The translations under genes and the position numbers were made by a program. 64,000 bases of DNA, from NCBI GenBank assembly GCA_041665365.1, contig JBAYIY010000002.1:2178-66177 (forward strand). Reading direction: 5' to 3'. Below the pieces are notes generated by a model. The model searched no databases, was not told the DNA's origin, and saw only the letters and a list, made by a program, of their open reading frames with translations. Position 1 is the first letter of the stretch. The number at the start of each line of letters is the position of its first letter. Below, one piece after another: positions 931 through 21,282 of this stretch. The DNA comes from Patescibacteria group bacterium. GTDB lineage: Bacteria > Patescibacteriota > Patescibacteriia > UBA9570.

Positions 931-2234
931 TAGATCCGTTTATTTGAGAGAGGAATTAAGTGACCAAGTTTTTTGATTCTGAACTCAATCTGCGACTTAT
1001 TATATTTATGTAATTTAGTGATGAGTGGTTCACGCCGGATCTCAATATTCATCTTTTCCAAAGCGGATATCTTTTTTGGGTTATTCGTGAGAAGACGAAT
1101 CTGTTTTAATTTAAACCACTTCAGAACATCTTCGATCTCGCTGTAATCGCGGGAATCGACTGGCAAACCCAATGTGAGATAAGAATGAATCGTATCATAA
1201 CCTTCGTCTTGCTTTTGATACACGCGGATGTGGTTAAAGGCGCCAACCCCTCTGCCTTCGTGGTTGACCACATAGATAATAAGACCTTTACGCGCGCGGT
1301 GGATTACTTCCATCGCCATCTGTAGTTGCGCATGACAGTCGCAACGCTGGGAATGAAATATCTGTGCAGTATTACAAGCCGAATGAATGCGAACCAATGG
1401 CCAGTCAGTCCCTTTGACGCGACCTTTCTCTAGAGCGTAATAATCTCCGTTACGTAATCTTAAAAGGTATAATTTGAAATGCGCTACAGATTGCTTTCCT
1501 ACTAGGGCTGGCATTTTAATCGGTCCGGCGACTTTAATTTTTTGTGCAGATCGTTTTATTTCAAAGACATAAAATACCCTAGGATCTCCCTTGGGCATTG
1601 TCTTTTTGCCAATGAGTTTAACTGTAAAACTCGCCGCTTTGGCTAAACGCTTCATCATCGCAATGTCTCCATAGTTGGCTTGTGCCAGATAAATTCTTCC
1701 GTTGCGGTTGAGGTACTTACTTACTTCTGAAAAAAATCTTTTATAGGTTCGGAACCCAGAGTCCCAGAATGAAGCTTCCACAAGATCCTTGGCGGCTTTG
1801 TTACGGTAGGGCAAATTTACAGTAATAACGTCAAATTTTTCACCGGTCTCTAATTTGTTGAATAGATCGGAACAGCGCGCATCAATGATCTTTGTGAAGC
1901 CATGAGTGTGAGCGTTCTGGTTCGTAGCTCGTACTGCCACAGAATTGGTATCTACAGCCACCACCTTACTGGCTCCTTTGTATGCAGAAAATACAGCAAT
2001 CACTCCGCAGCCAGTGCCGATATCCAACACACGCTCACCGGGTTTAATCATATATTTTTTAACGAGCAGAATTGAATCCTCATACGGTACAAACACAGTG
2101 CGATAAACAATAAATTTCTTTTCACAATAATTAATCATGATGCCTTTGTTAGGTATAGTGCGCGATTGTTTTTGTTTAGTTTTTTGCAGGCGTGTGATCT
2201 TGGCCAGTTGTTTTGAAGTGAGCATAGAGATCAA
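930..2234 (-). CDS. Fusion protein: N-terminal HemK/PrmC-like class I SAM methyltransferase joined to a C-terminal GTP cyclohydrolase II (RibA-like) domain.
   Basis: N-terminus: VLDIGTGCGVIA...DVITVNLPY (NPPY-type motif as NLPY). C-terminus: LVRIHSACNTAQIFHSQRCDCHAQL...NHEGRGVG...LLTNNPKK (GCHII zinc Cys triad and signature). Confidence 0.7.
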   Translation of the reverse strand: MISMLTSKQLAKITRLQKTKQKQSRTIPNKGIMINYCEKKFIVYRTVFVPYEDSILLVKKYMIKPGERVLDIGTGCGVIAVFSAYKGASKVVAVDTNSVAVRATNQNAHTHGFTKIIDARCSDLFNKLETGEKFDVITVNLPYRNKAAKDLVEASFWDSGFRTYKRFFSEVSKYLNRNGRIYLAQANYGDIAMMKRLAKAASFTVKLIGKKTMPKGDPRVFYVFEIKRSAQKIKVAGPIKMPALVGKQSVAHFKLYLLRLRNGDYYALEKGRVKGTDWPLVRIHSACNTAQIFHSQRCDCHAQLQMAMEVIHRARKGLIIYVVNHEGRGVGAFNHIRVYQKQDEGYDTIHSYLTLGLPVDSRDYSEIEDVLKWFKLKQIRLLTNNPKKISALEKMNIEIRREPLITKLHKYNKSQIEFRIKKLGHLIPLSNKRI

Positions 2235-2256
2235 TTATTATTATTACGAAGTTGTA

Positions 2257-2976
2257 TTAAATAACTTGCCGAGCAACGTTGACGAATTTTTTTAATCGCT
2301 CAGTTTTTGGATTAATTAAAATATCACCAGTTCCCTCTTCCACAATACTACCCGCATCCAGAAAAATTACTTTGTCACTAATTTTACTTGCTAGGTGTAA
2401 CGCATGACTCACAATAACTATTCCAACTCCTCGGTTGGCAATCTGTTTAAGATGGGCAAGAATCAGATAAGATTGTTCGATATCTAACGCGGAAGTTACT
2501 TCGTCAAGTAAAAGGTAATTTGGTTTAAGGAGCAAAGCGCGTACCAGAGCCGCTCGCTGGCATTCTCCGATTGATACTTCGTTTGGGTAGCGCTCTAAAA
2601 ATGAATCCATCTGAAATAGATCGACCATTTCTGCAAAATGCTTTTCATTGATATTCTTGCGCAAAGGTAGCGTTAGATTTTGCCTAATAGTTAAATGCGG
2701 CCAAATGAAAAGTTGCTGAAAAACAATAGTCAAATTTGGATATGGAAATTTAATACATTCATCTTGTCGAATCGGAAATTGATAATTGTCTTCATCAATT
2801 TTCAATGATCCTGCATCCGGAAAATCAATTAAAGAAATGGCGCGCAAAAAAGTCGTTTTACCAGCCCCACTCGGACCAACAATAGAAATGATCTCACCAC
2901 TTTCCAAGGATAGGGAAACATTATTTAATATTTTCTTACCAGCTATTATCTTGGTGATATGAGTTGCGTGCATCAT
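2257..2976 (-). CDS. ABC transporter ATP-binding protein, polar amino-acid type
   Basis: Walker A GPSGAGKTT; ABC signature/Walker B LLLDEVTSALD; operon with permease and binding protein. Confidence 0.85.
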   Translation of the reverse strand: MMHATHITKIIAGKKILNNVSLSLESGEIISIVGPSGAGKTTFLRAISLIDFPDAGSLKIDEDNYQFPIRQDECIKFPYPNLTIVFQQLFIWPHLTIRQNLTLPLRKNINEKHFAEMVDLFQMDSFLERYPNEVSIGECQRAALVRALLLKPNYLLLDEVTSALDIEQSYLILAHLKQIANRGVGIVIVSHALHLASKISDKVIFLDAGSIVEEGTGDILINPKTERLKKFVNVARQVI

Positions 2977-4564: not shown

Positions 4565-4710
4565 AAGGCCTTTTTCGCGACGGCGCAACGGCAAAAAACT
4601 GCAGTTTATTACGACAGAGTGCAACGACCTGCTTGTGGATAACATTTTTCAGCGACGGCTCACCTACGTTCCTAAGAAGGAACTTCGGGTGAGTAAACTC
4701 TAATGTTGGT
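4565..4710 (+). repeat. Intergenic two-box repeat element, copy A (box1 CGCGACGGCGCAACGGC; box2 TGTGGATAACATTTTTCAGCGACGGC; nested hairpin)
   Basis: About 90% identical to copy B. Contains the perfect DnaA-box nonamer TGTGGATAA and the hairpin CTCACC-tac-GTTCCT-aaga-AGGAAC-ttcg-GGTGAG. Confidence 0.7.
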
Positions 4711-4835
4711 CACTAACCCCACGTTTTAACGTGTGGGTTAGTTTGAGTTGGTTCTTCTGTCCACTATCTTTTTTCAGGGCTTTCATTTGTATTCATCTTT
4801 TCAGCGATCCATTTTTTGCAGCATTATTACAGCTG

Positions 4836-4865
4836 TTGACAAACAAAAAAGTTTTATGATATACT
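4836..4865 (+). promoter_or_regulatory. Near-consensus sigma70 promoter with extended -10
   Basis: TTGACA, 18-nt spacer, TGaTATACT. Confidence 0.5.
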
Positions 4866-4871
4866 TTTTTT

Positions 4872-5001
4872 ACTGAGCTTGTTAGGGTTTAGGCCCTCTC
4901 ACGGTTGAATACATAAAACCGTAAACAAGTCTCAGTAAATAACAAAACAAGTTATAATACAATCAATCCCCTTCTAAATCTCCAATGTGGAGTATTTTTT
5001 T
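4872..5001 (+). ncRNA. Candidate small RNA of about 130 nt, with its own sigma70-type promoter and a weak terminator
   Basis: TTGACA(4836-4841)-18 nt-TGaTATACT(4860-4865). The transcript has nested stems (gagCTTGTT...AACAAGtctc enclosing AGGGtttaggCCCT and ACGGTT...AACCGT). A 5-bp hairpin plus T7 lies at 4980-5001. There is no plus-strand ORF. Confidence 0.35.
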
Positions 5002-5014
5002 GTTTGATGTATTT

Positions 5015-5332
5015 TTAATATTTTACATTGACCATACGATATTGCCATTGAGAATTTGTATTCATTTGCTCCAGATGATTCGTTTCAAAAAATTCTTGCA
5101 AGGTATGTGATTTTTGTATAATCACAGGAGCCAATTTTAACAACCGAAAACGAATGTATTGATCTAGTTTTAATCTAGCCTTACCTTTTTTCTTAAATTT
5201 GAGATGTTCAATCCCCTTGGCATTGAAAGATACCGGCGTATGAAAGTAAGGACAATCTATTTGTCTAATAGTTTTATAAAAAGATTCTGCATCTGTTTTA
5301 GTTGATGCTAATTTTTCATCAGTTATTTCCAT
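5015..5332 (-). CDS. Hypothetical protein
   Basis: 105-aa ORF with no recognisable motifs. Confidence 0.4.
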   Translation of the reverse strand: MEITDEKLASTKTDAESFYKTIRQIDCPYFHTPVSFNAKGIEHLKFKKKGKARLKLDQYIRFRLLKLAPVIIQKSHTLQEFFETNHLEQMNTNSQWQYRMVNVKY

Positions 5333-5371
5333 TTATAAAATACTAAGTATAATATTTCGTTTTTACAAGAC

Positions 5372-5530
5372 CTTTTTCGCGACGGCGCAACGGCAAAAAA
5401 CCACACTTTATTATGACTGAGTGCAACGACTTGCTTGTGGATAACAATTTTTAGCGACGGCTCACCTACGTTCCTAAGAAGGAACTTCGGATGAGTAAAC
5501 TCTACTACGCTCGTAGGACAGAGCTTCGTA
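5372..5530 (+). repeat. Two-box repeat element, copy B
   Basis: Same architecture as copy A (box1 5377-5393; TGTGGATAA 5436-5444; hairpin). Confidence 0.7.
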
Positions 5531-5573
5531 GGAGCAGGCTCTAAAGCCAGTTAGTTAACAAGATGGTCTAGTA

Positions 5574-6473
5574 TTATTGTTTGTAAGTAACCACACTAAA
5601 CCCAGGCATATCATCAAAGAAAGAAACATCAGTTAGCTTCGCACGAGTATTCGTTGAACGTTGTGCAATACCGACTGATTGATTGAATGGATTACTGGTA
5701 ATGGTAATGTCAGCACCTGGCTGAAAATACTCTAGGAGTGGTTGGTCTGAAGCTGTGATAAAGATATCGGGAGTTTTAAGCATAATAGGTTGATCTAATG
5801 ATAACGTTTGGACAGTTTGGGTGTTTGGATCGTAGCTGAACCTAGCAAGTTCACGTTGTACTTGCACTGGTGGCATATTTTCAGATCCACTGGGTAACAG
5901 ATCATATAGTAACTTACTACGAACGCGAATGATGTATTGGTCGTGTGTTTTATCCCAATTACTATCCCAAAATGTATCAATGTAGGCTTCTGTGTTCCAA
6001 TCAAATTTTTGCGACAGGAGAGCCGTCACGTCAACACACGGTCCTAAAGTTTGGAAATCAAATGTGCTGATACAGTGAATTGAAGAATCGACTGGATTGT
6101 ATTCTAAAAAATCTTGCTGCGGTGAAAGTGATAAGTACTGGTACGTTCTATCAGCTGACTGCTCAATTAACTGGCTACCTTCTGGAGTTATGTAATAAAG
6201 ACCAGTGTCACCTACTAATAATTTTTGCGGTGACAAAAATTCTGTACTGGAGTCAGATTTGTAGGTAGTGTGCATCTTTCCATCTCCTGAAAATATATCC
6301 AACTTGTCATTACTATGAATCATAATTAGCGGCACACCATCATTCCATTGGATGGCAGACAAAGTGGCATTGTAGTTTGGTTGAGTAAGTCCTCCAAAAA
6401 AGTTTGATACCGTGGCTAAGATTATGAATAGATAGCTGATTAATGAAGGCATAATGTTATTACTTTTATACAT
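5574..6473 (-). CDS. Secreted hypothetical protein with an N-terminal signal/anchor
   Basis: Hydrophobic N-terminus MPSLISYLFIILATV; 299 aa. Confidence 0.5.
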   Translation of the reverse strand: MYKSNNIMPSLISYLFIILATVSNFFGGLTQPNYNATLSAIQWNDGVPLIMIHSNDKLDIFSGDGKMHTTYKSDSSTEFLSPQKLLVGDTGLYYITPEGSQLIEQSADRTYQYLSLSPQQDFLEYNPVDSSIHCISTFDFQTLGPCVDVTALLSQKFDWNTEAYIDTFWDSNWDKTHDQYIIRVRSKLLYDLLPSGSENMPPVQVQRELARFSYDPNTQTVQTLSLDQPIMLKTPDIFITASDQPLLEYFQPGADITITSNPFNQSVGIAQRSTNTRAKLTDVSFFDDMPGFSVVTYKQ

Positions 6474-6587
6474 CGTTTAATAAGGTATATACATACTAAT
6501 ACGATGCATACATTTTGTCCATAGTCCACAGCTACTTATCAAGACCATTTTGGAATTTTCTTTGATGCTTCTCAAAAAAATACAATG

Positions 6588-6665
6588 CCGGATAACATTT
6601 TTCAGCGACAGCTCACCTGCGTTCCTAAGAAGGAACTTCGGATGAGTAAACTCTACTACGCCACT
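6588..6665 (+). repeat. Partial repeat element, copy C (degenerate box2 plus hairpin)
   Basis: GCCGGATAACATTTTTCAGCGACAGCTCACCTGCGTTCCTAAGAAGGAACTTCGGATGAG. Confidence 0.6.
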
Positions 6666-6808
6666 TTTTCAAATATACAAAAACGAAAGAAGCTCTTAGT
6701 TAACACGATGTGTAGTCGCGTCAACGTTGAGCTTCGGCAGTACACAGACGACAGCTGGCGAACATTGCTGTTCAACAACCGATCTGGTCTGGTACTGAAT
6801 GTATCTGA

Positions 6809-9313
6809 CTAGCAGGGCGGTGCTGAGGTAGCGGTACCGAGATACCACCACTCGTAGTCGTCGTGACAACCGCCGGCGTAGTAGCCAGAGCAGCTGCCAT
6901 CACAACCTTCGTCCACCGTGCCGTCACAGTTGTTGTCGTTCCAGTCACCCCGTTCTGGTGCGCCCGAGTAGGTAGTTGCATCCCACCAGGCACAGTCGAA
7001 GGAGTCATCGTAGCCGTCGCCGTCCGAATCTGCCGCGCTGGAGCCGCAGACATAGGTTAGCGAACCGGTCGAGTAGTAACTTTCGTAGTCGTCGGTGCAG
7101 CCATCCCAGTAGGCGCCACCGCAACCGTAGTCACAGCTCTCGTCCGTGCTTCCATCACAATCGTTGTCGACCCAGTCGGCCAATTCAGGCGCACCGGGAT
7201 AGATGGACGCACTCCACCAACCACAATCGACAGTATCATCGTAACCGTCGCCGTCGTAGTCGCTGGCAGTGGGCGTACTGCAAGAGCTGCTCGACGCACA
7301 GTCGGAGTCTCCACAGTCCACTAGCCCATCCAGATCATTGTCCATGCCATCGGAACAGTAGAGTTCGGCGCAGGGCACATCGCCCCCAACGCAGTCATCA
7401 TCCGTTCCGTTGCCACAGATCTCTGGTGCTCCATAGTAGATGGCTGTGTTGCTGTCGTTGCAGTCATTTCCACCACAGCCCGTGGCCGTCTGGCCGTCAC
7501 CGTCGATGTCGCAGGAGGTATCGCTCTCGTCGGTGGTGTCACTCGTACTAGTCGTATCGTCCTCATCCATTGGATCGATCGCCATGCCGTTGAGTGATCG
7601 AACCTCTGTACTCGTCCGAACACCGAAGTTTCCGAACAGAATATGAGGCCGGCCGTAGGTTGAACTCAAACCAGTGATCAATTGAGACTGATCCACCTGC
7701 TCTTCGAAGCTGTTGCCGGCATTGCTCCGTGCCAGATACAGAGTTGTACCGTTGGAACGAATCAGATCGGCGTAGGCGTCGAGGTAGTCCAGAGGATAGA
7801 TGGTATAGTCACCATCCGTACCACCGACATCGGTACCCATCACTGCGATGGTGAAGGTACTCGTGCTGTTGTTATAGTGACCAGCTTCAATTTCCACACT
7901 GGAGTCACGTTCGTCGATGCGAATGATCTCATCGCTACCGTCACCATTAGTGTCGGCGACAACGAACTCATCCGTGGGCAATGCCCAACCAGTGCTGATG
8001 TTGGTCACGCTGCCAGAACTGCTCAGACGTTGCCAGGTCAGAGTGCTCCCCGAACCAGCGAAGGCTTCCGCCTCACCGTTGCCGTTGAAGTCGCCAACTA
8101 AGACGACACTACTGGTGGTTCCGAAGCTGGTGCTCCAGGTGACCGCGTCACCGAACCGACCGTTATCGCTGTCGTTGAGAAAGTACTTCCAAGTCAGAGT
8201 GCCGTCGGTGTTGGCGAAGACCAGAATCAGATCCGCGCGCCCATCTCCGTCCACATCATCCAAGAACGCTTTGACCGCTTCACCGGACGTCTTCTTCCAG
8301 CGGGTCTGAGTGTTGAGCTCTCCTTCCCCATTGGACAGGTAGACATTGGTGTAGGTGTAACCAGGCTTGATCCGCACTTGCACCAAGTCATCCCAGCCAT
8401 CGCTATTCATGTCTCCGGAGAGCCAGGACAGAATGGTGGCAGTAGAGCCAGTGTTGGTGTAGGAGAAGTAGTTACCGGACAGTGCAGTATCCTCACCCGA
8501 ACCCGTCACCTCGTAACCGTAGATGTCGAACTTGCCACTGCTGTTAGGTTCGACAGTCATGAGGTGAGTGGTGGTAGTAGTGGAGGTAGTGGCTGAGGAA
8601 GATCCGTCGTTTGTAGATTCGTAGTAGTTGCCTGCAACGTAATCCACAAACTGGATACCTTCCATTTCAACTCCATCAAGCTCACTGGTGTAGCTGTAGC
8701 CGCTGCCGTTGTACTTGATGGAGAAGTGCAGATGGGTACCAGTTGAATCTCCCGTCGTGCCAATCGCACCGAGAATTTCGCCCTGTGCCACGGTCTTGCC
8801 GATGTAGAGCGAAGACGGAATTGAATCCGCAGCGAGGTGGTAGTAGAGAGTGGTATATCCGTCACTGTGGTCGAGCTTGACGTAGCAAGCAAAATGACCT
8901 TCGCTCGCCTTGCCCTGAGTGCAGCCAGTCGTTACCATGTCAATGATCGTGCCAGCGGCGACTGCCACAGCAGGATCACCACTGTAGCGATCTTAGAAGT
9001 CGATGGCATAGTAGCCATTGTTGGCATCAGTATGCCATGAATCGATGCCACCATGTAGAATCTCGGCAACCACACCACCAGCTTCCACGTTGCACCGAAT
9101 GAGATCGCCAGGCTGCATCGGCATCTTGAGCTCGGGACCCGTATAGCCAGTGGCCTTGAGAGAAATACCCGATCGACCAGATGCACTGACATTGTCACCA
9201 CATTCAGCACCCGGCAGTGATGGATCACAATCGCCGAAGCTGCAGGCGACCAGATCGGCGAACCCGAACATCACGAAGAGGCTGATCATGAGGAGGCGGA
9301 TGTACCGTTCCAT
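6809..9313 (-). pseudogene. Secreted M23 (LytM-type) peptidase with FG-GAP repeats and a C-terminal Cys/Asp-rich repeat region. It is interrupted by an in-frame TAA at 8993-8995. It is compositionally foreign (GC-rich).
   Basis: ORFs 8993..9379 and 6809..8968 are in the same frame. The M23 block ...GYYAIDF*DRYSGDPAVAVAAGTIID...STGTHLHFS spans the stop. The region has RBS AGGAG and signal peptide MERYIRLLMISLFVMFGFADLVA. FG-GAP-like DVDGDGRADL/GDFNGNGEAEA/ADTNGDGSDEI repeats are followed by DxDxDG...CxxxDCDD...PGAPE..CDGxDNDCDG repeats. GC is about 55-60% against about 35% in the flanks. Confidence 0.55.
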
Positions 9314-9408
9314 TGGAAGACTCCTGGATTGTGAAGGAACGACTCTAGTCAAGAAGATTCCTGAGCTAGCAGAGCCCATCTAGTTGAAATAGATGGACCG
9401 GTGTTAAA

Positions 9409-10032
9409 TCAGAAATTAAATGTAATAGTAGATATAATCAATTCAACTTGTTTTTTATCTTCTTGTTTAGTGTTATTTGATAATATTGTAAAGTGTGCAT
9501 CTACTAAAGGATAATTATTAACCCAATACTCACTACTAATATCAGAAAAGAGTTCAGTTCCAGATTTTCCTCCTATTATGACCATTTTTTGTTCTAACCC
9601 CGGAACGCCATGGTCAATGTTTCTTTCGGGAAAAATTGTAAGCAGTATTTCCCCTTCCTTTGCTACCTGAACAACAGATACTTTTTTTCCTGGTAAAATC
9701 TTTGACACCAGATCAGTTTCTTGAACAGTTACATTAATGCCCACTGGATATTTAAAACTAAACCCATATTCATCATTCGTGTATGTTAACCAATCACTTG
9801 TATCCACTTCACTCACCTGTTCTGTATTAGTATTCTCATTGGTTACTACACCATTGATATTGTCATTTGAGTCCGTAACAACTACGTTAGTATTATCGTT
9901 TGTTGTATTTGTGTTTACCGTAACTGCATTGGTATTTATATTTGTTTTTTGAGTAGTTGTACAACTAGAGCCAGCTAAAAGTAGTGTGCAGGCAACTAAA
10001 GTGGTTAGTAAAGATAGTTTAGTTTTAAACAT
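9409..10032 (-). CDS. Lipoprotein, paralog A; Asn/Thr-rich linker followed by a conserved C-terminal domain
   Basis: MFKTKLSLLTTLVACTLLLAGSSC (lipobox-like). It shares ...DTSDW.TYTNDEYGFSFKYP with the 10405..11103 gene. Confidence 0.6.
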   Translation of the reverse strand: MFKTKLSLLTTLVACTLLLAGSSCTTTQKTNINTNAVTVNTNTTNDNTNVVVTDSNDNINGVVTNENTNTEQVSEVDTSDWLTYTNDEYGFSFKYPVGINVTVQETDLVSKILPGKKVSVVQVAKEGEILLTIFPERNIDHGVPGLEQKMVIIGGKSGTELFSDISSEYWVNNYPLVDAHFTILSNNTKQEDKKQVELIISTITFNF

Positions 10033-10099
10033 AAATTTAGAGTTAATAATAGTCTATATACTTGTACTATGGTCATAGAATGTTATTTAGTGCAATGAG

Positions 10100-10198
10100 T
10101 ATTCAGCGACGGCGTTAACTATAAAAAACTCAATTTGAGCCTAACATTAGATAAAATAAATAACAGGCGCATGTGGATAACATTTTTTAGCGACGGCT
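10100..10198 (+). repeat. Two-box repeat element, copy D (box1 10104-10114; TGTGGATAA 10172-10180), abutting a 5' stub of the M23 gene
   Basis: TTCAGCGACGGCGTTAAC...65 nt...ATGTGGATAACATTTTTTAGCGACGGCTC. Confidence 0.7.
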
Positions 10199-10300
10199 CT
10201 AAGATACTAATCATGAGGAGACGGATGTACCGTTCCATTGAGAGACTCCTGGATTGTGAAGGAACGACTCTAGTCAAGAATATTCCTGAGCTAGCTGTAC
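10199..10300 (-). repeat. Truncated duplicate (stub) of the M23-peptidase 5' region (promoter/RBS/first 14 codons), copy 1
   Basis: Near-identical to 9283-9372. It encodes MERYIRLLMISLF and then diverges exactly at the repeat-element boundary. Confidence 0.7.
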
Positions 10301-10404
10301 TCCTTCATATTCGTTAGAAATTGTATGAAGGAGTATGTGCTAAATCAAGAAGTAAAATTTCATTGTTCTAGTAAATTTCTGTGATTTATAAGTCATAAGG
10401 TCGT

Positions 10405-11103
10405 TTAAAATGTTAATGAATCTGCTACTTGTAAGAGGTCATCACTTATAGAAACATCTCCACTGATTGTTAAATTATTTTGTTTATCATTATAATTTGG
10501 TATCAATATATGTAGTGTATTAATTTTACTGCCATCAAAATCTGATATATCCTCAGTAACCTTAAGAGCAGGTTTGGTTCCGATAGTTATTTTCTCGACC
10601 GTCATTGTATTAGTTAGATTTCTATGTAGATCTTGCGCCAACTGATCATTTGTTTTTGTAAAATCAACTTTTGTGTAATCGAACCAACTGTTTGCATCAG
10701 ACGCATTTATAGTTTCTAAGCTATTACTTGATATCACCAAACGAGGGTTGCCAATTATGTCTTGCTTAAAATTATTTTCATCTCTAAAATTAATTGTCAA
10801 AAGAAATGGCACAGTATCACCTATCGAAACTTGCACGCTGCCCCACTCTTTTGGATACTTAAAACTAAACCCATATTCATCATTGGTATAAGTTTGCCAA
10901 TCACTAGTATCAATACCACTAACCTGCTCTACATTAGTATTGTCATTACTAACATTATCATTGGTGTTAGTTACAGCTTCAGTATTCACGTTATCGTTAA
11001 TAGTATTTGTATTTGTTTTTTGAGTAGTTGTACAACTAGAACCGACTAAAAGTAGTGTGCTGGCAGCGAAGGTGATTAGTAAAGCTAGTTTAGTTTGAAT
11101 CAT
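10405..11103 (-). CDS. Lipoprotein, paralog B
   Basis: MIQTKLALLITFAASTLLLVGSSCTTTQKTN..., paralogous to 9409..10032. Start chosen at MIQTKL (11103). The upstream promoter cassette is conserved. Confidence 0.6.
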   Translation of the reverse strand: MIQTKLALLITFAASTLLLVGSSCTTTQKTNTNTINDNVNTEAVTNTNDNVSNDNTNVEQVSGIDTSDWQTYTNDEYGFSFKYPKEWGSVQVSIGDTVPFLLTINFRDENNFKQDIIGNPRLVISSNSLETINASDANSWFDYTKVDFTKTNDQLAQDLHRNLTNTMTVEKITIGTKPALKVTEDISDFDGSKINTLHILIPNYNDKQNNLTISGDVSISDDLLQVADSLTF

Positions 11104-11177
11104 AAATTTAGAATTAAATAAATATAGTCTATATACCTGTACTATGGTCATAGAATGTTAGTTAGTGCAATAAGTAA

Positions 11178-11276
11178 CTAACGACGGCGCTAACACTAAA
11201 AAGCTCAATTTTAGCCTAACATTAGGTAAAATAAAATACAAATGTGTGTGGATAACATTTTTCAGCGACGGCTCAA
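11178..11276 (+). repeat. Two-box repeat element, copy E (TGTGGATAA 11247-11255), abutting M23 5' stub copy 2
   Basis: AACGACGGCGCTAAC...TGTGTGGATAACATTTTTCAGCGACGGCTCA. Confidence 0.7.
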
Positions 11277-11375
11277 AGAGGCTGATCATGAGGAGGCGGA
11301 TGTACCGTTCCATTGGAAGACTCCTGGATTGTGAAGGAACGACTCTAGTCAAGAAGATTCCTGAGCTAGCTGTAC
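11277..11375 (-). repeat. Truncated duplicate (stub) of the M23-peptidase 5' region, copy 2
   Basis: Identical to 9287-9372 over about 90 nt, including the AGGAG RBS and codons 1-14. Confidence 0.7.
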
Positions 11376-11509
11376 TCCTTCATATTCATTATAAATTGTA
11401 TGAAGGAGTATGTGCTAAATCAAGAAGTAAAACCTATTAGACACACAATTTTGTTTTAATGATTATATGATTTAATTAGTTATTGATTTATTATTCTGTC
11501 TAATATTAT

Positions 11510-12265
11510 TTATAATGGTTTAGGAATTCCACGTATGATTTTTCTATTAACAGCAATGGAATGATTTTGAATATAAACAAGTAATTGATCATTAGACATA
11601 TACGTTAACTCGTCAATCTCATTAATATCTGGAATGAAATATAACTCACCATCGCTTTCGACGGCCATAATAACCCGTCCTATTAATCGTTGTTGTAAAT
11701 CCTCATATAGCTCCTCATGACCACTAATAATACTACTACAGGTAGGCCCTTCTCCAAAATCTAGGCATGCTAAAGCCTGAATATCTAAATTAGATGCCGG
11801 TGTAACACGAAAATCACCAACAGCTGCTGCTTCCAAAAAAGCAGAATATATGTTTTTTGAACTCAACTTTTGTTTAAAACCGTCTGCTATCCAGTAATAC
11901 CTGTTTTTTACTTTATAAAACCCATCTGGTAAATATCTATTGATTATCGGTAAACCGTTGGCAGTATTTATCCAATACATTTTACCAGAGTGTTGTGCGC
12001 GTAAAATAACTTTTCCTTCTAAGATATTAAGTATGGGATCACAAAGTCTACCTAGCGGAGTTGTGACAGCATCACTGGGTACATTTTCGTTTGCAGTGTA
12101 ACAATGACTATTCAATAATTCTTTATAAACAGATTCACTAACACCAATAATATTAGGGGTAAGATTCACCACGGTCATAGCGTTTGTTAAAGACGGTAGT
12201 ACCAACGTAAGTACTAATAAACTAACAACTATAGTAGAGATAGTTATGTGTTTAGATCTAGTCAT
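11510..12265 (-). CDS. Secreted hypothetical protein
   Basis: Signal-peptide-like N-terminus MTRSKHITISTIVVSLLVLTLVLPSLTNA. It shares the same upstream promoter cassette as the lipoprotein paralogs. Confidence 0.5.
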   Translation of the reverse strand: MTRSKHITISTIVVSLLVLTLVLPSLTNAMTVVNLTPNIIGVSESVYKELLNSHCYTANENVPSDAVTTPLGRLCDPILNILEGKVILRAQHSGKMYWINTANGLPIINRYLPDGFYKVKNRYYWIADGFKQKLSSKNIYSAFLEAAAVGDFRVTPASNLDIQALACLDFGEGPTCSSIISGHEELYEDLQQRLIGRVIMAVESDGELYFIPDINEIDELTYMSNDQLLVYIQNHSIAVNRKIIRGIPKPL

Positions 12266-12407
12266 AAATTTAGAGTTAATAATAGTCTATATACTTGTAT
12301 ATATGGTCATAGAATGTTAGTTAGCGCAATAAGTATCCGGCGACGGCTCAATTGTCTATCATTACCCCCCACGTTTTAACGTATGCCCGCCTGCCGATAG
12401 GCAGGGG

Positions 12408-12992
12408 TTATTTTTTTGTGGTGTGGTCGTCTACTTCATGTAAGGCTATACCTCGTTCCTGAAAAATTCTATCTCTAATGATGAGACCTAAAATTGGATA
12501 AATCTCAAGCATGTTCATACCAATAGAAAAAGCGTGAGTTTTTATCTCATTTTGTTCGTCAAGCGTGAATATTTTATCAAAATTATTTCCAGCTACATCT
12601 AGTGCTACTGTTTGAATGTCGTAAGGATTCGTGGGAGCCTTACTTTCGACTGCTTGTTTAATATCCGTCCAATGATTGTTTACTTTTACTTCAGCCGATA
12701 TGGCTTGAGCAATTTCTGCTCCTTTGGTGGTTAAACTAATTGGGCTATGGGATTTAATGGTACTTAAGTGTGCTTGATAAAGTAGATCTGAAGTAGCCTG
12801 AATTTTTGCTATATTTGAATTTATTGCATCAATTTTTACATCAAATTTGTCACTCTTTCCCTCAAAATCTTTATATGCCTTCACCCAACCACCACTTTTA
12901 TAAGCTAGCCAAAAAGTTAGTATTAAAATAAGAACAAGCACGAATACGGCACTATTTAACTGTTGAATTAAAGCTAGAAATATTGCTTCCAT
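12408..12992 (-). CDS. Membrane-anchored hypothetical protein
   Basis: N-terminal TM segment AVFVLVLILILTFWLAY. Confidence 0.45.
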   Translation of the reverse strand: MEAIFLALIQQLNSAVFVLVLILILTFWLAYKSGGWVKAYKDFEGKSDKFDVKIDAINSNIAKIQATSDLLYQAHLSTIKSHSPISLTTKGAEIAQAISAEVKVNNHWTDIKQAVESKAPTNPYDIQTVALDVAGNNFDKIFTLDEQNEIKTHAFSIGMNMLEIYPILGLIIRDRIFQERGIALHEVDDHTTKK

Positions 12993-13025
12993 AAATATTA
13001 GTATATCATTTTTGTAACTAAATTG

Positions 13026-13529
13026 CTACCCAGCGAATGGTTCTAAACTCAAAATATTTTTTGCTTCCTGGGGTGAAAACACTTTTTTATCTTTGAGTAA
13101 ATTTACCACCGCCACTGTTTTCTTATCTTCCTTCCGTAAAATGTTGATGATATTACCTTCCATGGTACTAAGTCTAATATCCAAATAAGACTTAGTAACC
13201 ATCTGGGTTTTAAACTCAGCTAAATCAATTTTTGTGGCCATGCTGGACTCAATAGTATCAAAACGTTTATCGATGTCAGCAAAACGCTTATCTATATCCA
13301 TGAATCGTTTATTGATATCAACAAAATGTTTATCAATATTTACAAAATGATCATCAATACCAATAAATCTTTGTTCATTTTGAATGGACATATTGGTTAC
13401 TGCTGTCATGAACTCCTGGAGGGTTGTTTGAATATTATCCACGCTGGTTTGAATATTATCCACGCTGGTTTTAACTCCCTCAAGAGTTACTTTATTTGTA
13501 TGGGGTGTTTTTGTCATAGAATTGTGCAT
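13026..13529 (-). CDS. Hypothetical coiled-coil protein with tandem heptad repeats
   Basis: Protein has GIDDHFV NIDKHFV DINKRFM DIDKRFA DIDKRFD and TSVDNIQ x2. These are encoded by imperfect 21-bp DNA tandem repeats at about 13270-13390. Confidence 0.5.
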   Translation of the reverse strand: MHNSMTKTPHTNKVTLEGVKTSVDNIQTSVDNIQTTLQEFMTAVTNMSIQNEQRFIGIDDHFVNIDKHFVDINKRFMDIDKRFADIDKRFDTIESSMATKIDLAEFKTQMVTKSYLDIRLSTMEGNIINILRKEDKKTVAVVNLLKDKKVFSPQEAKNILSLEPFAG

Positions 13530-13704
13530 GTGATACTAGCATTATTAATAAATATTTTCAATTTAGCGCTTTCGCTGCCCATCGTGATCAAATATAGCTT
13601 GAGGCATGAGTTATATTTGCAGCACGATGGGGCATTGCTTGGGCGTCTTGGTCAACCAATGCACACAGCGAAAGACTGAGATCATTTTAGAGAAATAAAC
13701 TTTA

Positions 13705-13837
13705 TACACAAGGGCTTTTCCGCGACGGCGCAAATACAAAAAATCAGTAAAATCACAAAATTATCCAAATTAATTGTTAATTATATAAAAAAATACCTTG
13801 TGTATAACTTTTTTTAGCGACGGCGCTACACTTGCAT
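13705..13837 (+). repeat. Two-box repeat element, copy F, overlapping the promoter region of the asparaginase-like operon
   Basis: CCGCGACGGCGCAAA ...70 nt... TTGTGTATAACTTTTTTTAGCGACGGCGCTACAC followed by TTGCAT (-35-like) and RBS AAGGA. Confidence 0.6.
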
Positions 13838-16233: not shown

Positions 16234-16935
16234 TCAAATAATGATTTCATCAATCCCCCGTACCGGTTCGCCTAACCATTTACCTCCGGCTTTGGTTACT
16301 TCCACCATATCTTCCAACCGGATCCCACCCCAACCAGGTTCATACACGCCAGGTTCATCAGTGATTACGTCACCTATTTGTAAGAGTCTTCTCCCCCGCC
16401 GACTCGGTGATAAAAACGGCGGTTGATGTATGGCTCGACCCACACCGTGCCCCAAACCATGAATGAATAATTTATCTAAGTGCTGGCTTTGTAAATATTG
16501 GCGCGCAACCTGATCTACTACATTTCCAGTCACACCCGGTTTGATTTTTTTGAAAGCTAACCGTTGGGCTTGTAGCACTGCATAAAAACGCGTGCGAAAT
16601 AAACTGGTGGGTGCACCCATAAAATAAGTTCGCGTCACATCACCCCGCATATGTTGGTATACTCCACCAGCATCAACCTTAACCATATCGCCCAACTGTA
16701 ATCGACGACTGGTTGGTTTATGATGCGGCTCAGCCGCTGAAGACCCAAAGGCCGCAATCACCGGAAAAGCGCGTTGCTCTGAGTAAGCTTCGGTTAATAA
16801 TCGGCCCATGCGCCAGGCTAATTGTTTTTCAGTTATCCCTATTACAATATAACGTGGTAAAAATCGAAACGCCCGATAAGTTATCCGTGCTACTTTCCGG
16901 CAGGCCGGTAGATTATAGCTTGGCCCACTTCCCAT
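16234..16935 (-). CDS. M24 family metallopeptidase, catalytic domain only (Xaa-Pro aminopeptidase-like)
   Basis: GDVTRTYFMG...FIHGLGHGVGRAIHQPPF...GVYEPGWGGIRLED pita-bread fold motifs. Short (233 aa), with no N-terminal creatinase-like domain. Confidence 0.65.
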   Translation of the reverse strand: MGSGPSYNLPACRKVARITYRAFRFLPRYIVIGITEKQLAWRMGRLLTEAYSEQRAFPVIAAFGSSAAEPHHKPTSRRLQLGDMVKVDAGGVYQHMRGDVTRTYFMGAPTSLFRTRFYAVLQAQRLAFKKIKPGVTGNVVDQVARQYLQSQHLDKLFIHGLGHGVGRAIHQPPFLSPSRRGRRLLQIGDVITDEPGVYEPGWGGIRLEDMVEVTKAGGKWLGEPVRGIDEIII

Positions 16936-18211
16936 ACTGCCGCACTAATACATCACTGGCGATGCTCTCATCTTCCAAACAGGCTCGTACAACTTTTTCT
17001 AACCGCGCCACCTGTGAACCTTTGACTAAAATAATATCATCTGGTTGTAATAAGGCCGCTACATTACCTGCCGCGGCTTGCGCACTAGCATAATGGTGAA
17101 TCATGTCCGGATTAAACCCATTGTCAGTCGCGGCTTCCGCTATCCAATCGCCTTCATTGCCAATTGTCACCAGTAAATCTATTTCTAAACCGGCTAAATA
17201 TTTTCCGATGGCCGCATGAGATCGTTTGGCACTATTACCTAATTCAGCCATCACTCCTAAAACAGCAATTCTGCGCCCCGGTGTTTTTAACTCATGTAAA
17301 ATGCGTAGTGCTTCTCGCGCCGCCGCCGGTGAAGAATTATAAGTATCATCTAAAATAACACTGTGTTGCTTACCGGGTAATAATCTTAAGCGTCCATTCG
17401 GGCCATGATAATGTTGCAAAGCTGATACTATATCAACCAAATTAATTCCTAATTGCAATCCACAGGCAATGGCAAATAAGGCACTATACACCGTTGGTTT
17501 ACCAACCGCTCCGGGAATAAAAACCGGTACAGTACTACCTATATATTTTACTTTGAATCTAGTTCCGGCTACCTTTGGATCATAAGCTAACTTCATTGGA
17601 TCTTTACTGTAATCTATTTCAACAGCTGCAACATCAGCCGGTTGAGTAGCTGAAATCGTTATAGTTTTAGCTGACAATGAGGCTTGCGCTGCACTAATGA
17701 ACTCATCATCCAAATTCACAATAGCAATATCTGACTTGGTTAAATGCCTCAACATCACTAGTTTCTCAGCGGCTAACGCCTTAACATCAGAGAAAGCTTG
17801 CAGATGAGCCGGAGTATCACTGATCGCCGTAACAATACCAATCTGCGCTGGTGCGATTTGTGTCAGATATTTAATATCACCCGGTTTATCAGCACCCATT
17901 TCTATTATTAGTACGCGCGGATATGGTAACGGCAACAACCCATAACCAATGGCTTTAATACACACCCAAAGCCAGCGTAATGGATTTCGTCCACCACTAG
18001 TGGCACCAATAATAGTTAAAGGCACACCAATCTCATTGTTGTAATTTTCCACTGTGGCACGAACTGAATATTTTTTCTTCAAAACAGCCAAAATGGCTTC
18101 TTTGGTAGAAGTTTTTCCCACACTTCCAGTCACGGCTATAATTATGGGGTGTTGTTTCCATAAAATCAGCTTGGCTAAGTGCTTAAGGAGTGAAAATAAT
18201 ATTGGGTGCAT
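16913..18211 (-). CDS. murF: Mur ligase; its dcw-cluster position and C-terminus point to UDP-MurNAc-pentapeptide synthetase MurF
   Basis: IIAVTGSVGKTSTKEAI P-loop; C-terminal ...DIILVKGSQVARLEKVV; lies downstream of ftsI. Confidence 0.6.
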   Translation of the reverse strand: MHPILFSLLKHLAKLILWKQHPIIIAVTGSVGKTSTKEAILAVLKKKYSVRATVENYNNEIGVPLTIIGATSGGRNPLRWLWVCIKAIGYGLLPLPYPRVLIIEMGADKPGDIKYLTQIAPAQIGIVTAISDTPAHLQAFSDVKALAAEKLVMLRHLTKSDIAIVNLDDEFISAAQASLSAKTITISATQPADVAAVEIDYSKDPMKLAYDPKVAGTRFKVKYIGSTVPVFIPGAVGKPTVYSALFAIACGLQLGINLVDIVSALQHYHGPNGRLRLLPGKQHSVILDDTYNSSPAAAREALRILHELKTPGRRIAVLGVMAELGNSAKRSHAAIGKYLAGLEIDLLVTIGNEGDWIAEAATDNGFNPDMIHHYASAQAAAGNVAALLQPDDIILVKGSQVARLEKVVRACLEDESIASDVLVRQYGKWAKL

Positions 18212-18212
18212 A

Positions 18213-19958
18213 TTAATTTCGATCAGGTGGTATTTGCATATAATTTAACACATCTTTGGCAATTTCTCCCCACACCGGTACAACTGACCCTTCGGCATAT
18301 TGGCTCTTTGGTTCATTCATTTCTATCAACATCACAAATTGTGGATCAGACATTGGTCCAAATCCGATCATAGTATCGTTGTGCTTATATGTACTATAAA
18401 CACCGTTGCTGACGATTAAGGCCGTACCGGTTTTGCCTGCTAAATAATAGCCTGGCACAGCGGCTGGCTTAGCTGTGCCACTATCAATTACACTAACCAA
18501 CATGGCGGTTAAAGTTCTGGCCGCATCAGCACTGATAACTTGTCTTACTTCAGTTGGAGTAGTTGGTATTTCCGCTCCACTAGCTAGAATCCGATTCTCC
18601 ACGATATATGGTTTCATCAACATACCATGATTAGCGACCGCACCGTAGCCAGCTACTAACTGCAATGGCGTCACCATAATACCATGGCCAAACGAACCGG
18701 TATAAGCGTAGACATCTTTCAAGGTTTCTAGAGACGAAATATCTCCACTCCGTTCATTCGCTAAAGTAATACCAGTTTTATCCCCAAACCCAAAGGCTTT
18801 AACATAATCATTTAAAGCCGCATTGCCAATTTGTTGAGTCACAAAAATCGTTCCAAGATTATATGATTTTTCTAACACGGCCGTCATGGTTTGCACGCCA
18901 TGGGCGGCACCATCTGAATTTTTAATGGGCATCCCGGCCACTTTTACTTCGCTGGTATCATTATAGGTGGTAGTCGGTGTCACCTTACCGGTATCTAACC
19001 CCGCCGCCATGGTGAAGGTTTTAAAGGCTGAACCCGGTTCATATTCATCGCTGATAGCGGCATTAGAAAATACATCAACCGATTCAACTTCATTATAATT
19101 ATTTGGATCATACGTTGGGTAATTACACATAGCAATAATTGCTCCAGTACTGGGCTGCATAATAATCAATGTTCCCTTTTTTGCCTCTAAACGTTCAACG
19201 GCTTTGCCTAATTTATCACAGGCACTATATTGAATGTTTTTATCAATCGTTAAAACAATATCATCACCATCAACTGCCCGCTGAATTAAATTATTACCAA
19301 TCGTTAAAAATCTACCCAAAGCATCTTTTTCGCCAGACACATAACCGGCCTGACCAGCCAATTCTTTATTAAAGTAACCCTCTAAGCCATATTGACCAAC
19401 CCGATCAACATCGGAATAACCAAAGTAACCAGTGACATGCGCCAGCGCTGGACCTTCTGAATAATAGCGCCACTGCTCTTCCCGAAAAGTAATACCCGGT
19501 AAATTTTTTTCTTTAATGGCGGTCATCACTTCTTCAGGGACGCGTCGTTTTAAGATTTCATCAGGATCATTCGGTTTGGTTAATTTGGCTTCGATGTCGG
19601 CTTTATCAATTGATAACAATGGCGATAAGTCAGCGGCCGTGACTGCAGCATCTGTGACGTGAATTGGTTCGGCATGTACTTCATATAATACTTTATTGGT
19701 GGCAATTGGGACGTTGCCAGTTTGACTATAGCGATCATGCACTAAAATACTGCCTCGTTCGGGAAATAGTTCTTCAAATAACTCATGATTATCCACCGCT
19801 AAGGCTTCATAGTAACCATGTTGCACTACTTGCACGATAAATAACCGTAAAGCAATCACGCCACCTAACATAACAAAAACCAAGCGCAGATAATCGAGCC
19901 GGTCATACCGACTGCCGCGCGGATGTTTATTGTGAGAAGGCGACCGCTGACGTATCAT
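18213..19958 (-). CDS. ftsI: Penicillin-binding protein transpeptidase (FtsI/PBP2 class)
   Basis: SxxK (GSAFK), SxN (KSYN) and KTG (AGKTGTA) motifs; N-terminal TM; dcw context. Confidence 0.85.
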   Translation of the reverse strand: MIRQRSPSHNKHPRGSRYDRLDYLRLVFVMLGGVIALRLFIVQVVQHGYYEALAVDNHELFEELFPERGSILVHDRYSQTGNVPIATNKVLYEVHAEPIHVTDAAVTAADLSPLLSIDKADIEAKLTKPNDPDEILKRRVPEEVMTAIKEKNLPGITFREEQWRYYSEGPALAHVTGYFGYSDVDRVGQYGLEGYFNKELAGQAGYVSGEKDALGRFLTIGNNLIQRAVDGDDIVLTIDKNIQYSACDKLGKAVERLEAKKGTLIIMQPSTGAIIAMCNYPTYDPNNYNEVESVDVFSNAAISDEYEPGSAFKTFTMAAGLDTGKVTPTTTYNDTSEVKVAGMPIKNSDGAAHGVQTMTAVLEKSYNLGTIFVTQQIGNAALNDYVKAFGFGDKTGITLANERSGDISSLETLKDVYAYTGSFGHGIMVTPLQLVAGYGAVANHGMLMKPYIVENRILASGAEIPTTPTEVRQVISADAARTLTAMLVSVIDSGTAKPAAVPGYYLAGKTGTALIVSNGVYSTYKHNDTMIGFGPMSDPQFVMLIEMNEPKSQYAEGSVVPVWGEIAKDVLNYMQIPPDRN

Positions 19959-20280
19959 CCAAATAATGCACTGAACCAGCTGCCACTAGATGGTACCGTT
20001 CACTCATATCGCTCACATGAGGCAAAGCTAACACTTCAGAAATTTCTAATTCCATCTTTTGATTATTGGCTTTGGTTTGATTAATATCATGATTCAACGC
20101 GGACACAGTAAAAGATTCAGCCGCCGTAGAATTAACAATCACTAAATAAGCCGCTCCACCAATTAAGAGTAAACCAATCATAATAAGATTAATGACAATT
20201 GTGTTTTGCCACAACGGTAAAGCCACCACCTGTTTTTGTTGGCTCAATTTACTGTTAGTGAGGCGAGTTATTTTTGTCAT
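19927..20280 (-). CDS. FtsL-like cell-division membrane protein
   Basis: Small bitopic protein between rsmH and ftsI. Confidence 0.5.
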   Translation of the reverse strand: MTKITRLTNSKLSQQKQVVALPLWQNTIVINLIMIGLLLIGGAAYLVIVNSTAAESFTVSALNHDINQTKANNQKMELEISEVLALPHVSDMSERYHLVAAGSVHYLDDTSAVAFSQ

Positions 20281-20286
20281 AGCATT

Positions 20287-21282
20287 TTATATTTTTTGGA
20301 TAACCCGTAATTTAGCGCTACGGGAACGTGGATTGGTTCTAATTTCTGTATCACTGGGCACCAGTGGATGTTTGGTTAAGAGCGTAGCTACCGGCTGTGG
20401 GTGACAGGTGCATACTGGGAGCTCGGGTGGACACACACATTTGGTACTACTCCAATTAATAAATTGCTGTTTTACTATCCTGTCTTCTAGTGAATGGAAG
20501 GTTATGACGGCCATCCTTCCACCAGGAGACAAGACAGTAAACGCGGCAGTTAACATACTTTGCAATGTCTCTAACTCATCATTCACGGCAATGCGACAGG
20601 CTTGCCATATTTTTGCCAGGAGATCACTCGACTGGCTATGAAAAGCCTGCTGCACACATGCCAACACGTCAGCGACGGTAATGATCGGGCGATCCAGACG
20701 CCTGGAAATAATCGTCCGAACCAGCCGGTGTGGGTTTGATAACTCACCATAGCGCCGAAACATCTGGACGAGCATCGCAGACGTATCAGTATTGAGCAGA
20801 TCCGCCGCGGTGGTAGGCAAGGTGGGATCCATCCGTAAATCGAATGGATCAGACAGCGCCCGGAAGGAAAAACCTCGTCCGCGTTGGAACTGATCGGATG
20901 AATAACCAAGATCAAATAACACACCGTTTACCTGACCCGTAATACTCCAAGTAGCACAGGCTGTGGCGATGGTTTTGGCATTGGCCGTAATTGGAATGAA
21001 CTGACTAGAACCAAATTGTTTTCTAAACCGCTCCTGCACCAGGGTAATAGCTGCTGGATCCTGATCGAAGCCATACAACTGACCACTGGGTTGAATTCGT
21101 TCCAGCAGTGCAGCCGCGTGACCTCCCCCACCGAGTGTGCCATCAATCATGATGTCACACACCTGTGGGTTCAGGAGCCTGATTACCTCCTCAGCTAGGA
21201 CTGGTATATGTGCGGTAGGCATAACAATTTTTAAGGTTCCACAGCGCCGAGCCAATTTCCACTCGGCAGTGTCGATCCTCAA
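20287..21282 (-). CDS. rsmH: 16S rRNA (cytosine1402-N4)-methyltransferase RsmH/MraW
   Basis: HIPVLAEEVIRLLNP...DGTLGGGGHAAALL...GFDQDPAA; follows mraZ. Confidence 0.85.
   Translation of the reverse strand: MRIDTAEWKLARRCGTLKIVMPTAHIPVLAEEVIRLLNPQVCDIMIDGTLGGGGHAAALLERIQPSGQLYGFDQDPAAITLVQERFRKQFGSSQFIPITANAKTIATACATWSITGQVNGVLFDLGYSSDQFQRGRGFSFRALSDPFDLRMDPTLPTTAADLLNTDTSAMLVQMFRRYGELSNPHRLVRTIISRRLDRPIITVADVLACVQQAFHSQSSDLLAKIWQACRIAVNDELETLQSMLTAAFTVLSPGGRMAVITFHSLEDRIVKQQFINWSSTKCVCPPELPVCTCHPQPVATLLTKHPLVPSDTEIRTNPRSRSAKLRVIQKI

Follow-up and report, generated by a model that had tools for sequence, protein, structure and literature searches.

The closest described counterparts of the gene studied here are the M23 zinc metallopeptidases, the lectin-type propellers built from FG-GAP repeats, and the MopE or 'putative metal-binding motif' repeats that are common in Myxococcota surface proteins; at the scale of the locus, they are the polymorphic cell-wall toxins with their orphan immunity genes and the classical islands of atypical guanine-plus-cytosine (GC) content. 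Within a stretch of 64,000 nucleotides (nt) from a Patescibacteria group bacterium (assembly GCA_041665365.1, contig JBAYIY010000002.1, positions 2,178 to 66,177 of the forward strand, hereafter the window), we analysed a minus-strand gene (9313 to 6809) that joins these three kinds of module in one reading frame, carries an in-frame stop codon inside its M23 domain, and is much richer in GC than its surroundings. Neither GC-rich hydrolase genes of Patescibacteria nor the architecture of this protein came up in a search of the literature. The explanation that we favour, and hold for probable, is that of a modular hydrolase broken by a nonsense mutation, in which the GC anomaly is old and family-wide rather than the mark of a recent import.

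The gene (M23 gene) extends from ATG 9313 to a TAG at 6811..6809 and contains a single in-frame stop, a TAA (8995..8993) at codon 107 of 834. Upstream of this stop lies an N-terminal fragment of 106 codons (8996..9313), whose translation comprises the signal MERYIRLLMISLFVMFGFADLVAC and, beyond a linker, the beginning of the M23 domain with His94 and Asp105; downstream, the same frame continues for 727 codons plus the TAG (6809..8992). The local translation around the stop, ...NNGYYAIDF*DRYSGDPAVAVAAG..., is identical to that given in the initial annotation, which had attributed the split between the two open reading frames (ORFs) of this one gene to a substitution-type stop rather than to a frameshift; the shared frame and the conserved Asp of the homologs support this description. 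The frame of the ORF proposed at the time also stands, its start probably not: ATG 9379, which opens the mechanical ORF, probably lies inside a non-coding leader, and ATG 9313 is preferred because the MERY start is conserved in homologs (the close ones all begin at the equivalent position, with MERY or MERI) and because a ribosome-binding site, AGGAG, precedes it at 9325..9321. Public annotation starts the downstream ORF at GTG 8968 and calls its product a 719-residue 'MopE-related protein [Patescibacteria group bacterium]' (P0001), 100% identical to ORF 8968..6809.

Pfam searches of the joined translation, i.e. both ORFs read across the TAA, bore out the M23/FG-GAP/Cys-rich architecture of the initial annotation, with matches to Peptidase_M23 (PF01551; 59.4 bits, cut-off 28.7) extending across the TAA, to FG-GAP_3 (45.4 bits, cut-off 26.9) and, in three stretches, to Cu-binding_MopE (PF11617; 65.8 bits, cut-off 27). 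The M23 domain occupies approximately residues 56-240 (8594..9148) and includes the TAA; it is followed by the FG-GAP stalk, a beta-propeller in the homolog model (residues 243-569; 7607..8587), and by an acidic linker with Cys-rich MopE-type repeats (6812..7603) of the pattern DxDGDG...C..WD....PGAPE..D..DNDCDG. On inspection, the N-terminus holds the lipobox LVAC at residues 21-24 (Cys24), from which the intact product would be a lipoprotein; the homolog P0002 has the lipobox LTAC, and other homologs have signals of the signal peptidase I type.

Sequence matches of the M23 domain in the PDB include phage Gp16, Csd proteins, zoocin A, LasA and lysostaphin (down to 4e-10), and the domain is 60-70% identical to those of P0002, P0003, P0004, P0006 and P0008. 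The HLHF (HxH) motif is present together with Asp105 (IDF), which is invariant in the homolog alignment (A3). In the PDB alignments, the His of the canonical HxxxD motif aligns with a Tyr (YYAID), and a conserved His94 (WHTD), ten residues before the Tyr of YYAID and eleven before the ligand Asp, is by its alignment a likely zinc ligand, as in LasA. Structural evidence comes from the AlphaFold model of P0002, the closest full-length homolog, whose stalk is 50% identical to that of the window protein: the M23 domain is modelled with a predicted local distance difference test (pLDDT) of ~80-89 and the 330-residue stalk as all-beta with a pLDDT of 80-96, the Cys-rich tail being of low confidence. 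Foldseek searches of the PDB superposed the head of P0002 on Csd2 (1.6 A over 96 residues) and matched its stalk to UmbA4 with teichuronic acid (E = 1.4e-11), to integrin alpha heads and to the Photorhabdus PLL/PHL lectins. The intact enzyme would be a membrane-tethered, secreted zinc M23 endopeptidase with a LasA-like head, presumably cutting peptidoglycan cross-links, whose lectin-like FG-GAP beta-propeller probably binds a cell-surface polymer and directs the enzyme to it, and whose acidic, Cys-rich C-terminal repeats are predicted to bind metal. Its domains mark the product of the M23 gene as an M23/FG-GAP/Cys-rich-repeat protein, a putative lipoprotein and cell-wall hydrolase.

The TAA sits two residues past Asp105, the putative zinc ligand, within the catalytic domain, and the catalytic residues of YYHL and HLHF lie 3' of it, so that the M23 domain is not encoded by a full-length open reading frame. 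At this codon, all five homologs of the same M23 subtype (L001, L003, L007, L008 and L006) encode Asp by GAT or GAC, and none of them carries the stop that the initial annotation had suggested looking for in relatives. Over the remaining 833 codons there are no other stops or frameshifts, and every family-invariant residue is kept. This combination, a disabling lesion at a conserved Asp of an otherwise homologous gene, identifies the locus on sequence grounds as a pseudogene or null allele. The upstream fragment would keep the signal peptide and the first ligands, the downstream ORF would have no signal and only the HxH half of the site, and because the TAA parts the one from the other, neither fragment would be an active secreted enzyme. 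Since the rest of the gene is undamaged, the inactivation, if real, would be recent, or would represent a null allele in the sampled population. We read the TAA as a real nonsense allele, presumably present as such in the reads, and not as recoding.

Probable traces of earlier losses lie near the gene. Its own leader is conserved among homologous loci (9314..9370, minus strand) and contains the GCTAGCTCAGGAAT box (9357-9370), CTAGAGTCGTTCC and the ribosome-binding site. Ahead of the homologous gene, L001/L002, L003 and L008 have the exact GCTAGCTCAGGAAT box, L007, L009, L028 and L029 variants of it, and L027 a degenerate, weaker match. Across loci, the layout is that of a covarying hairpin, then GCTAGCTCAGGAAT, a spacing of 14-17 nt and TCGYT (GCTAGCTCAGGAAT...CTAGA.TCG.TCC). 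The hairpin, terminator-like and with a 10-bp stem by folding, lies 3' of the upstream lipoprotein gene (9373..9399, minus strand); all 10 pairs are kept at the same position in six loci, with compensatory changes in each, and it forms the 5' boundary of the M23 transcription unit. Two further copies of the leader, each with the first 13 codons of the gene, stand alone on the minus strand of the window: repeat comparison placed them at 10201..10295 (93% identical to the gene's copy, and listed by gene callers as a 39-residue ORF) and at 11276..11370 (100% identical over 95 nt). Each of these solo leaders follows a paralogous lipoprotein gene and runs straight into the promoter-type module belonging to the gene after it, and by this arrangement they are probably the deletion scars of two lost M23 paralogs. 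The nonsense mutation would then follow the earlier loss of two paralogous hydrolase copies.

A second case of interruption was found in an independent assembly (L029; ERZ24794648 NODE_392), where an in-frame TGA (~9387-9389) divides a member of the family into ORFs 8001-9389 and 9417-11291. This TGA replaces the conserved Arg of PDLIRW, which fits a change from CGA to TGA, and the downstream ORF of 624 codons is intact. Together with the two leader remnants, this split favours a real decay of the window gene. Two considerations weigh against this reading of the stop. First, the change from GAY (Y, pyrimidine) to TAA takes two substitutions, which is unusual in an otherwise intact gene, and no GAA or TAY intermediate was observed; such an intermediate, if tolerated, would cut the inactivating step to one substitution. 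Second, a consensus error or a minority haplotype may underlie the TAA; only one contig on record carries the window sequence. That the TAA arose in sequencing or assembly, or that the assembler picked a minority variant while the gene is intact in most cells, appears improbable to us. This explanation would account for the otherwise undamaged gene with all its family-invariant residues, in a short-read metagenome assembly represented by a single contig in databases; but two of the three bases differ from GAY, a two-base error within one codon being unlikely for a short-read assembly consensus, and misjoins are not expected, as the nearby 95-nt repeats are shorter than the largest k-mer of the assembler (k141 in the contig name). 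The in-frame stop of L029, in another assembly, and the earlier loss of two copies at the locus also speak against an artefact.

Could the stop be functional, through low-frequency readthrough or through a split into a small lipoprotein and a propeller/MopE protein re-initiated from GTG 8968? The downstream ORF is wholly intact, GTG 8968 is preceded by GGTGAT, and the TGA of L029 is a TGA-C, a context known as leaky. Yet that stop lies at a different place, the five same-subtype homologs all encode Asp at the codon concerned, TAA-G is an efficient terminator and TAA the commonest stop in the window (35 TAA, 11 TAG and 8 TGA over 54 ORFs), and the re-initiated product would have neither a signal peptide nor half of the active site. 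Rfam searches gave no match at E <= 1 over 4.4-12.5 kb, a region that includes the stop, the leader and the repeats; at gathering thresholds, the sole match in the whole window was a tRNA-Gln at 40.7 kb. A functional stop is the explanation to which we give least credit, and programmed readthrough, one of the options of the initial annotation, is unlikely. An alternative genetic code is ruled out by the use of all three stops and by the 89% coding density of the window under table 11.

The second singularity of the gene is its composition. Its GC content reaches 0.556 in a window of 0.407, and relative to the 53 other ORFs of at least 120 residues within the window, it departs by z = 3.9 for GC (0.402 +/- 0.039 in the 53 ORFs) and by z = 5.0 for GC at third codon positions (GC3; 0.636 vs 0.357 +/- 0.055), exceeding the maximum of all of them. 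Third positions hold 0.44 C and 0.09 A, against 0.16 C and 0.27 A elsewhere, with TTC, TAC, AAC, GAC, ATC, AAG, CTC and CTG as strongly favoured codons and a bias towards GGC and ACC as well. The initial annotation was correct on the outlier and on its GAC/GGC/ACC bias, and with a window at 40.7%, the surroundings are far from the ~55% GC that would make the gene typical; in its composition, the M23 gene is atypical in the way expected of a genomic island. Amino-acid composition alone is ruled out as the cause, the biggest shift falling on third positions. The antisense ORFs that had been listed as spurious over the gene are present, show no sign of coding, and look like by-products of this composition.

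The elevated GC is not restricted to codons. The leader is at ~0.45-0.47 GC vs 0.29-0.33 further upstream, and past the stop, GC remains at ~0.48-0.55 over ~120 nt before falling to 0.34-0.38. This 3' untranslated tail (6696..6808, minus strand), in which a terminator-like stem GAAGCTC...GAGCTTC followed by a T-run can be read, aligns with the tail of L001. The GC-rich zone is the whole transcription unit, with its leader, ORF and tail of ~120 nt, and not its codons alone.

Relatives of the gene share this anomaly. The closest ones (P0002-P0007) have ~35-61% identity with the window protein when the whole alignment is counted, and an exhaustive profile search yielded more members of the family. 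From these, we fetched ten Patescibacteria-type loci (L001/L002, L003, L005, L007, L008, L009, L027, L028 and L029), whose sources are named, where a name is given, as Candidatus Kerfeldbacteria, Patescibacteria or 'bacterium', in addition to L006, with the low-GC homolog P0008, and L030, whose homolog belongs to a GC-rich genome. Throughout the ten Patescibacteria-type loci, GC and GC3 are 0.49-0.60 and 0.46-0.80 in the hydrolase gene, and 0.28-0.50 and 0.19-0.55 in the flanking genes. The recurrence of the same GC step in independent assemblies (NCBI, ENA and Logan) rules out chimeric assembly. The codon bias of highly expressed genes is ruled out as well, both by the GC-rich untranslated tail and by L028, where the hydrolase (P0035) has a GC3 of 0.80 next to EF-Tu and S10 ribosomal-protein operon genes at 0.38-0.55. 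Four-fold synonymous identity among the GC-rich homologs, at conserved residues, is 0.26-0.54, with 0.25-0.36 expected from composition; because synonymous sites are close to saturation while GC3 stays high, the divergence of these homologs is old. The GC-richness of the window gene thus extends to all of the Patescibacterial branch of this hydrolase family and has long been part of it, for reasons that we can only infer. Possible 5' disruptions in L027 and L029 proved to be start errors of gene calling, with intact signal peptides in frame upstream.

The locus itself is shared too. Wherever upstream sequence is visible (L001, L003, L005, L007, L009, L027, L028 and L029), a low-GC gene of one lipoprotein family directly precedes the hydrolase, as established by BLAST among the upstream genes of the ten loci. 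Its representative in the window (9409..10032, minus strand; 207 residues, GC 0.325) has a paralog at 10405..11151 on the same strand, so that two lipoprotein genes persist beside the probable deletion scars. Proteins of this family (gene GC 0.30-0.38) have an N/T-rich linker followed by a motif of the type W.TY.N.EYGFSFKYP, and their best Pfam match, PsbP_2, is weak and below the cut-off. The lipoprotein could be a partner of the hydrolase or a protective protein.

The proteins are mosaics. A word-indexed database search with the stalk gave only generic FG-GAP proteins, but an exhaustive HMMER search with a stalk profile revealed ~30 clusters (at 50% identity) in which the whole module lies behind a head of ~200 residues; as heads there are CHAP-like amidases or M23 domains, the latter of at least three subtypes, and the tails vary. 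The window protein itself combines a head 70% identical to that of P0003 with a stalk only 31% identical to it and nearest those of P0004, P0005 and P0002 (50%), and its C-terminus is nearest that of P0002 (76%), then P0031 (59%). Since the relationships of the modules are discordant, recombination between family members must be frequent. Judged by these domains, the family consists of predicted secreted cell-wall enzymes in which a lectin-like propeller is combined with swappable heads (M23 or CHAP) and variable tails.

The initial annotation had deduced a horizontal acquisition from composition, with a hint at Myxococcota or Planctomycetota. This deduction is not supported in that form: in ten other assemblies of low GC, relatives at a comparable locus are GC-rich as well, which makes GC content uninformative on recent acquisition. 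The conserved promoter, hairpin and neighbour, together with the synonymous saturation, argue for long residence and against recent import. The possibility of a recent transfer from GC-rich, Myxococcota-like donors, or of separate transfers into each genome, deserved nevertheless to be weighed, with GC3 values as stages of amelioration and the stop as early decay. In its favour, the gene is a strong compositional outlier down to its untranslated tail, and GC3 forms a continuum across the family (0.88; 0.80-0.73; 0.68-0.60; 0.52; 0.46; 0.275) that descends from a 71% GC genome (0.88) through the Patescibacterial loci (0.80-0.46) to the low-GC, Lys-rich homolog P0008 of L006 (0.275). A homolog of the same architecture (L030), in which many MopE repeats accompany an M23 head and the shared stalk, is also native to a 71% GC contig (gene GC 0.71), where it adjoins another FG-GAP/MopE protein; P0038, of GC-rich-type composition, nests among Patescibacterial stalks; and two members of the family carry nonsense codons of the GC-to-AT kind. 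However, low-GC contigs harbour all the close relatives (31-61% identity), each in an equivalent position, with the lipoprotein gene, the terminator hairpin and mostly the leader motif, even where heads and signal peptides differ, so that serial import would need a landing behind the same promoter every time. Nor does the locus resemble a recent arrival: the gene is present in the ten other loci, no integrase or transposase family was found among the precomputed Pfam matches within +/-10 kb of it, no tRNA lies beside it (the only one in the window being that at 40.7 kb), the repeats near its borders are promoter-type modules and leader remnants, and among homologs from GC-rich genomes the best (P0129) reaches 29-36% identity per module, which is distant for a donor. 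We consider recent or repeated import unlikely.

In the long-resident, nonsense-broken hydrolase that we favour, the family would have come long ago from a GC-rich lineage and then diversified within Patescibacteria, its GC being kept off the AT-rich equilibrium of its hosts by ongoing recombination between members, with or without GC-biased repair, or by repeated replacement. An ancient origin in a GC-rich lineage is possible because a homolog with the same head-and-stalk layout exists in a 71% GC genome, though a distant one. Several observations run counter to such a scenario. The low-GC P0008 shows that the family can ameliorate, which would fit repeated or recent arrivals equally well, and the nesting of P0038 implies that exchange with GC-rich organisms has occurred. 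In addition, host and gene trees are not comparable, the short homolog contigs sharing no housekeeping genes with the window, and GC-biased conversion as the maintaining force is conjectural.

A more specific reading, which we put forward tentatively and regard as rather unlikely, is that the hydrolase and the upstream lipoprotein form an antagonism module, toxin and protective lipoprotein, exchanged among Patescibacteria by recombination so often that GC-biased repair holds the hydrolase unit at a GC-rich equilibrium, with a GC3 some 0.3 above that of the host. If true, biased gene conversion would here have gone to an unusual extreme and over the length of a gene, and the window would represent the end state, with two orphan lipoprotein genes by the scars and the last hydrolase freshly knocked out.

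Compositional outliers were also encountered outside the close family. A locus search with the alignment of the M23 domain returned, besides the known Kerfeldbacteria locus, only distant relatives at 34-40% identity. Six distant M23 relatives (L011, L016, L017, L020, L022 and L024; 34-41% identity), of which three are named as Magasanikiibacteriota, Bdellovibrionales and a Patescibacteria metagenome-assembled genome and the other three are metagenome contigs, have a GC 0.07-0.15 above that of their 3-kb flanks, and the GC elevation may reach beyond the close hydrolase family. In L005, 2 kb from the hydrolase, another one-gene GC island (8324-9394, plus strand) is at 65-70% GC in a contig of ~40% GC; the gene caller annotated its antisense strand. 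The product is a lipoprotein (lipobox LLSGC) without Pfam match, whose C-terminal Cys motif GSAGCVISAYAM suggests a cysteine peptidase or amidase. In L029, a gene at 1740-2897 (plus strand) with a GC of 0.505 among genes of 0.28-0.35, and with only faint Rossmann-type Pfam matches, may be a further outlier.

Other features of the window concern the control of the neighbouring genes. The GGAAT...CGTT spacing in the M23 leader is reminiscent of promoters of extracytoplasmic function (ECF) sigma factors, and a gene for an ECF-type sigma factor lies 5 kb upstream in L028. Downstream of the M23 gene, a repeated intergenic module with GCTGTCGCTGAAAAA (6590..6661, minus strand), a 72-nt repeat 94% identical to 5439-5510, probably serves the next gene (5574..6473) as promoter or operator region. 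Nine copies of the motif GCCGTCGC[N]RAAAAA, with 0.03 expected, lie all on the minus strand between 4.5 and 13.8 kb (4570, 4645, 5372, 5447, 6598, 10183, 11258, 13715 and 13810; window stretch 4570-13824). Its copies are mostly paired, 75-95 nt apart, each of them 40-120 nt 5' of a minus-strand gene (SBP_bac_3, small ORFs or lipoproteins), and they belong to a module of ~130 nt, of which 4570-4700 and 5370-5510 are near-identical copies. The module looks like a common promoter or operator for a set of secreted-protein genes. Genes of cell-wall synthesis and division lie ~7-10 kb from the hydrolase on the same strand (16234-21282), namely a Mur ligase (16913..18211), a penicillin-binding protein or transpeptidase (18213..19958) and an RsmH-like gene (20287..21282).

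Taken alone, the M23 gene is a broken M23 hydrolase and largely ordinary; the persistent, gene-sized GC island and the hydrolase-lipoprotein locus are what makes it noteworthy. Its first lesson is one of caution: atypical GC is not a proof of recent transfer, as a one-gene island can recur across diverged Patescibacteria. It also brings to light a family of hydrolases in ultrasmall, probably episymbiotic bacteria, which are candidates for attacking or remodelling the wall of a partner. Finally, if its GC state is actively maintained, the locus would offer a compact natural test of GC-biased conversion or of selection at the level of composition in bacteria.

Compared with described systems, the window protein shares with the M23 zinc metallopeptidases (lysostaphin, LytM, LasA, zoocin A and Csd1-3) the Pfam score, the HLHF motif, the invariant Asp and, through the model of its homolog, the fold of Csd2, and by analogy with them it would be expected to cleave peptidoglycan cross-links; unlike them, it has a Tyr in place of the canonical HxxxD His, is interrupted by a stop, and is fused to a propeller and MopE repeats. 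The stalk, again as modelled in P0002, matches the lectin and FG-GAP propellers of integrin alpha V, Photorhabdus PLL/PHL and Streptomyces UmbA4, which suggests a targeting domain for surface glycans, but sequence identity to these is only 10-15% and the window protein is not part of an umbrella particle. Three MopE repeats (65.8 bits) were counted where the homolog of the 71% GC genome has many, and they sit, in contrast to the usual hosts of such repeats, in a low-GC Patescibacteria genome, with a metal binding that is predicted and a tail model of low confidence. As in polymorphic cell-wall toxins with orphan immunity genes, the family has variable heads, a common stalk, variable C-termini and an adjoining small lipoprotein; no secretion-system genes or known immunity families were identified, and the lipoprotein gene of the window lies upstream of the enzyme gene and not downstream, an immunity role being purely conjectural. 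With classical GC islands, finally, the transcription unit shares a sharp GC step of 0.15-0.25 at its borders; it differs from them in being a single gene, without integrase, tRNA or direct-repeat borders, and in that the same island recurs in every related genome examined.

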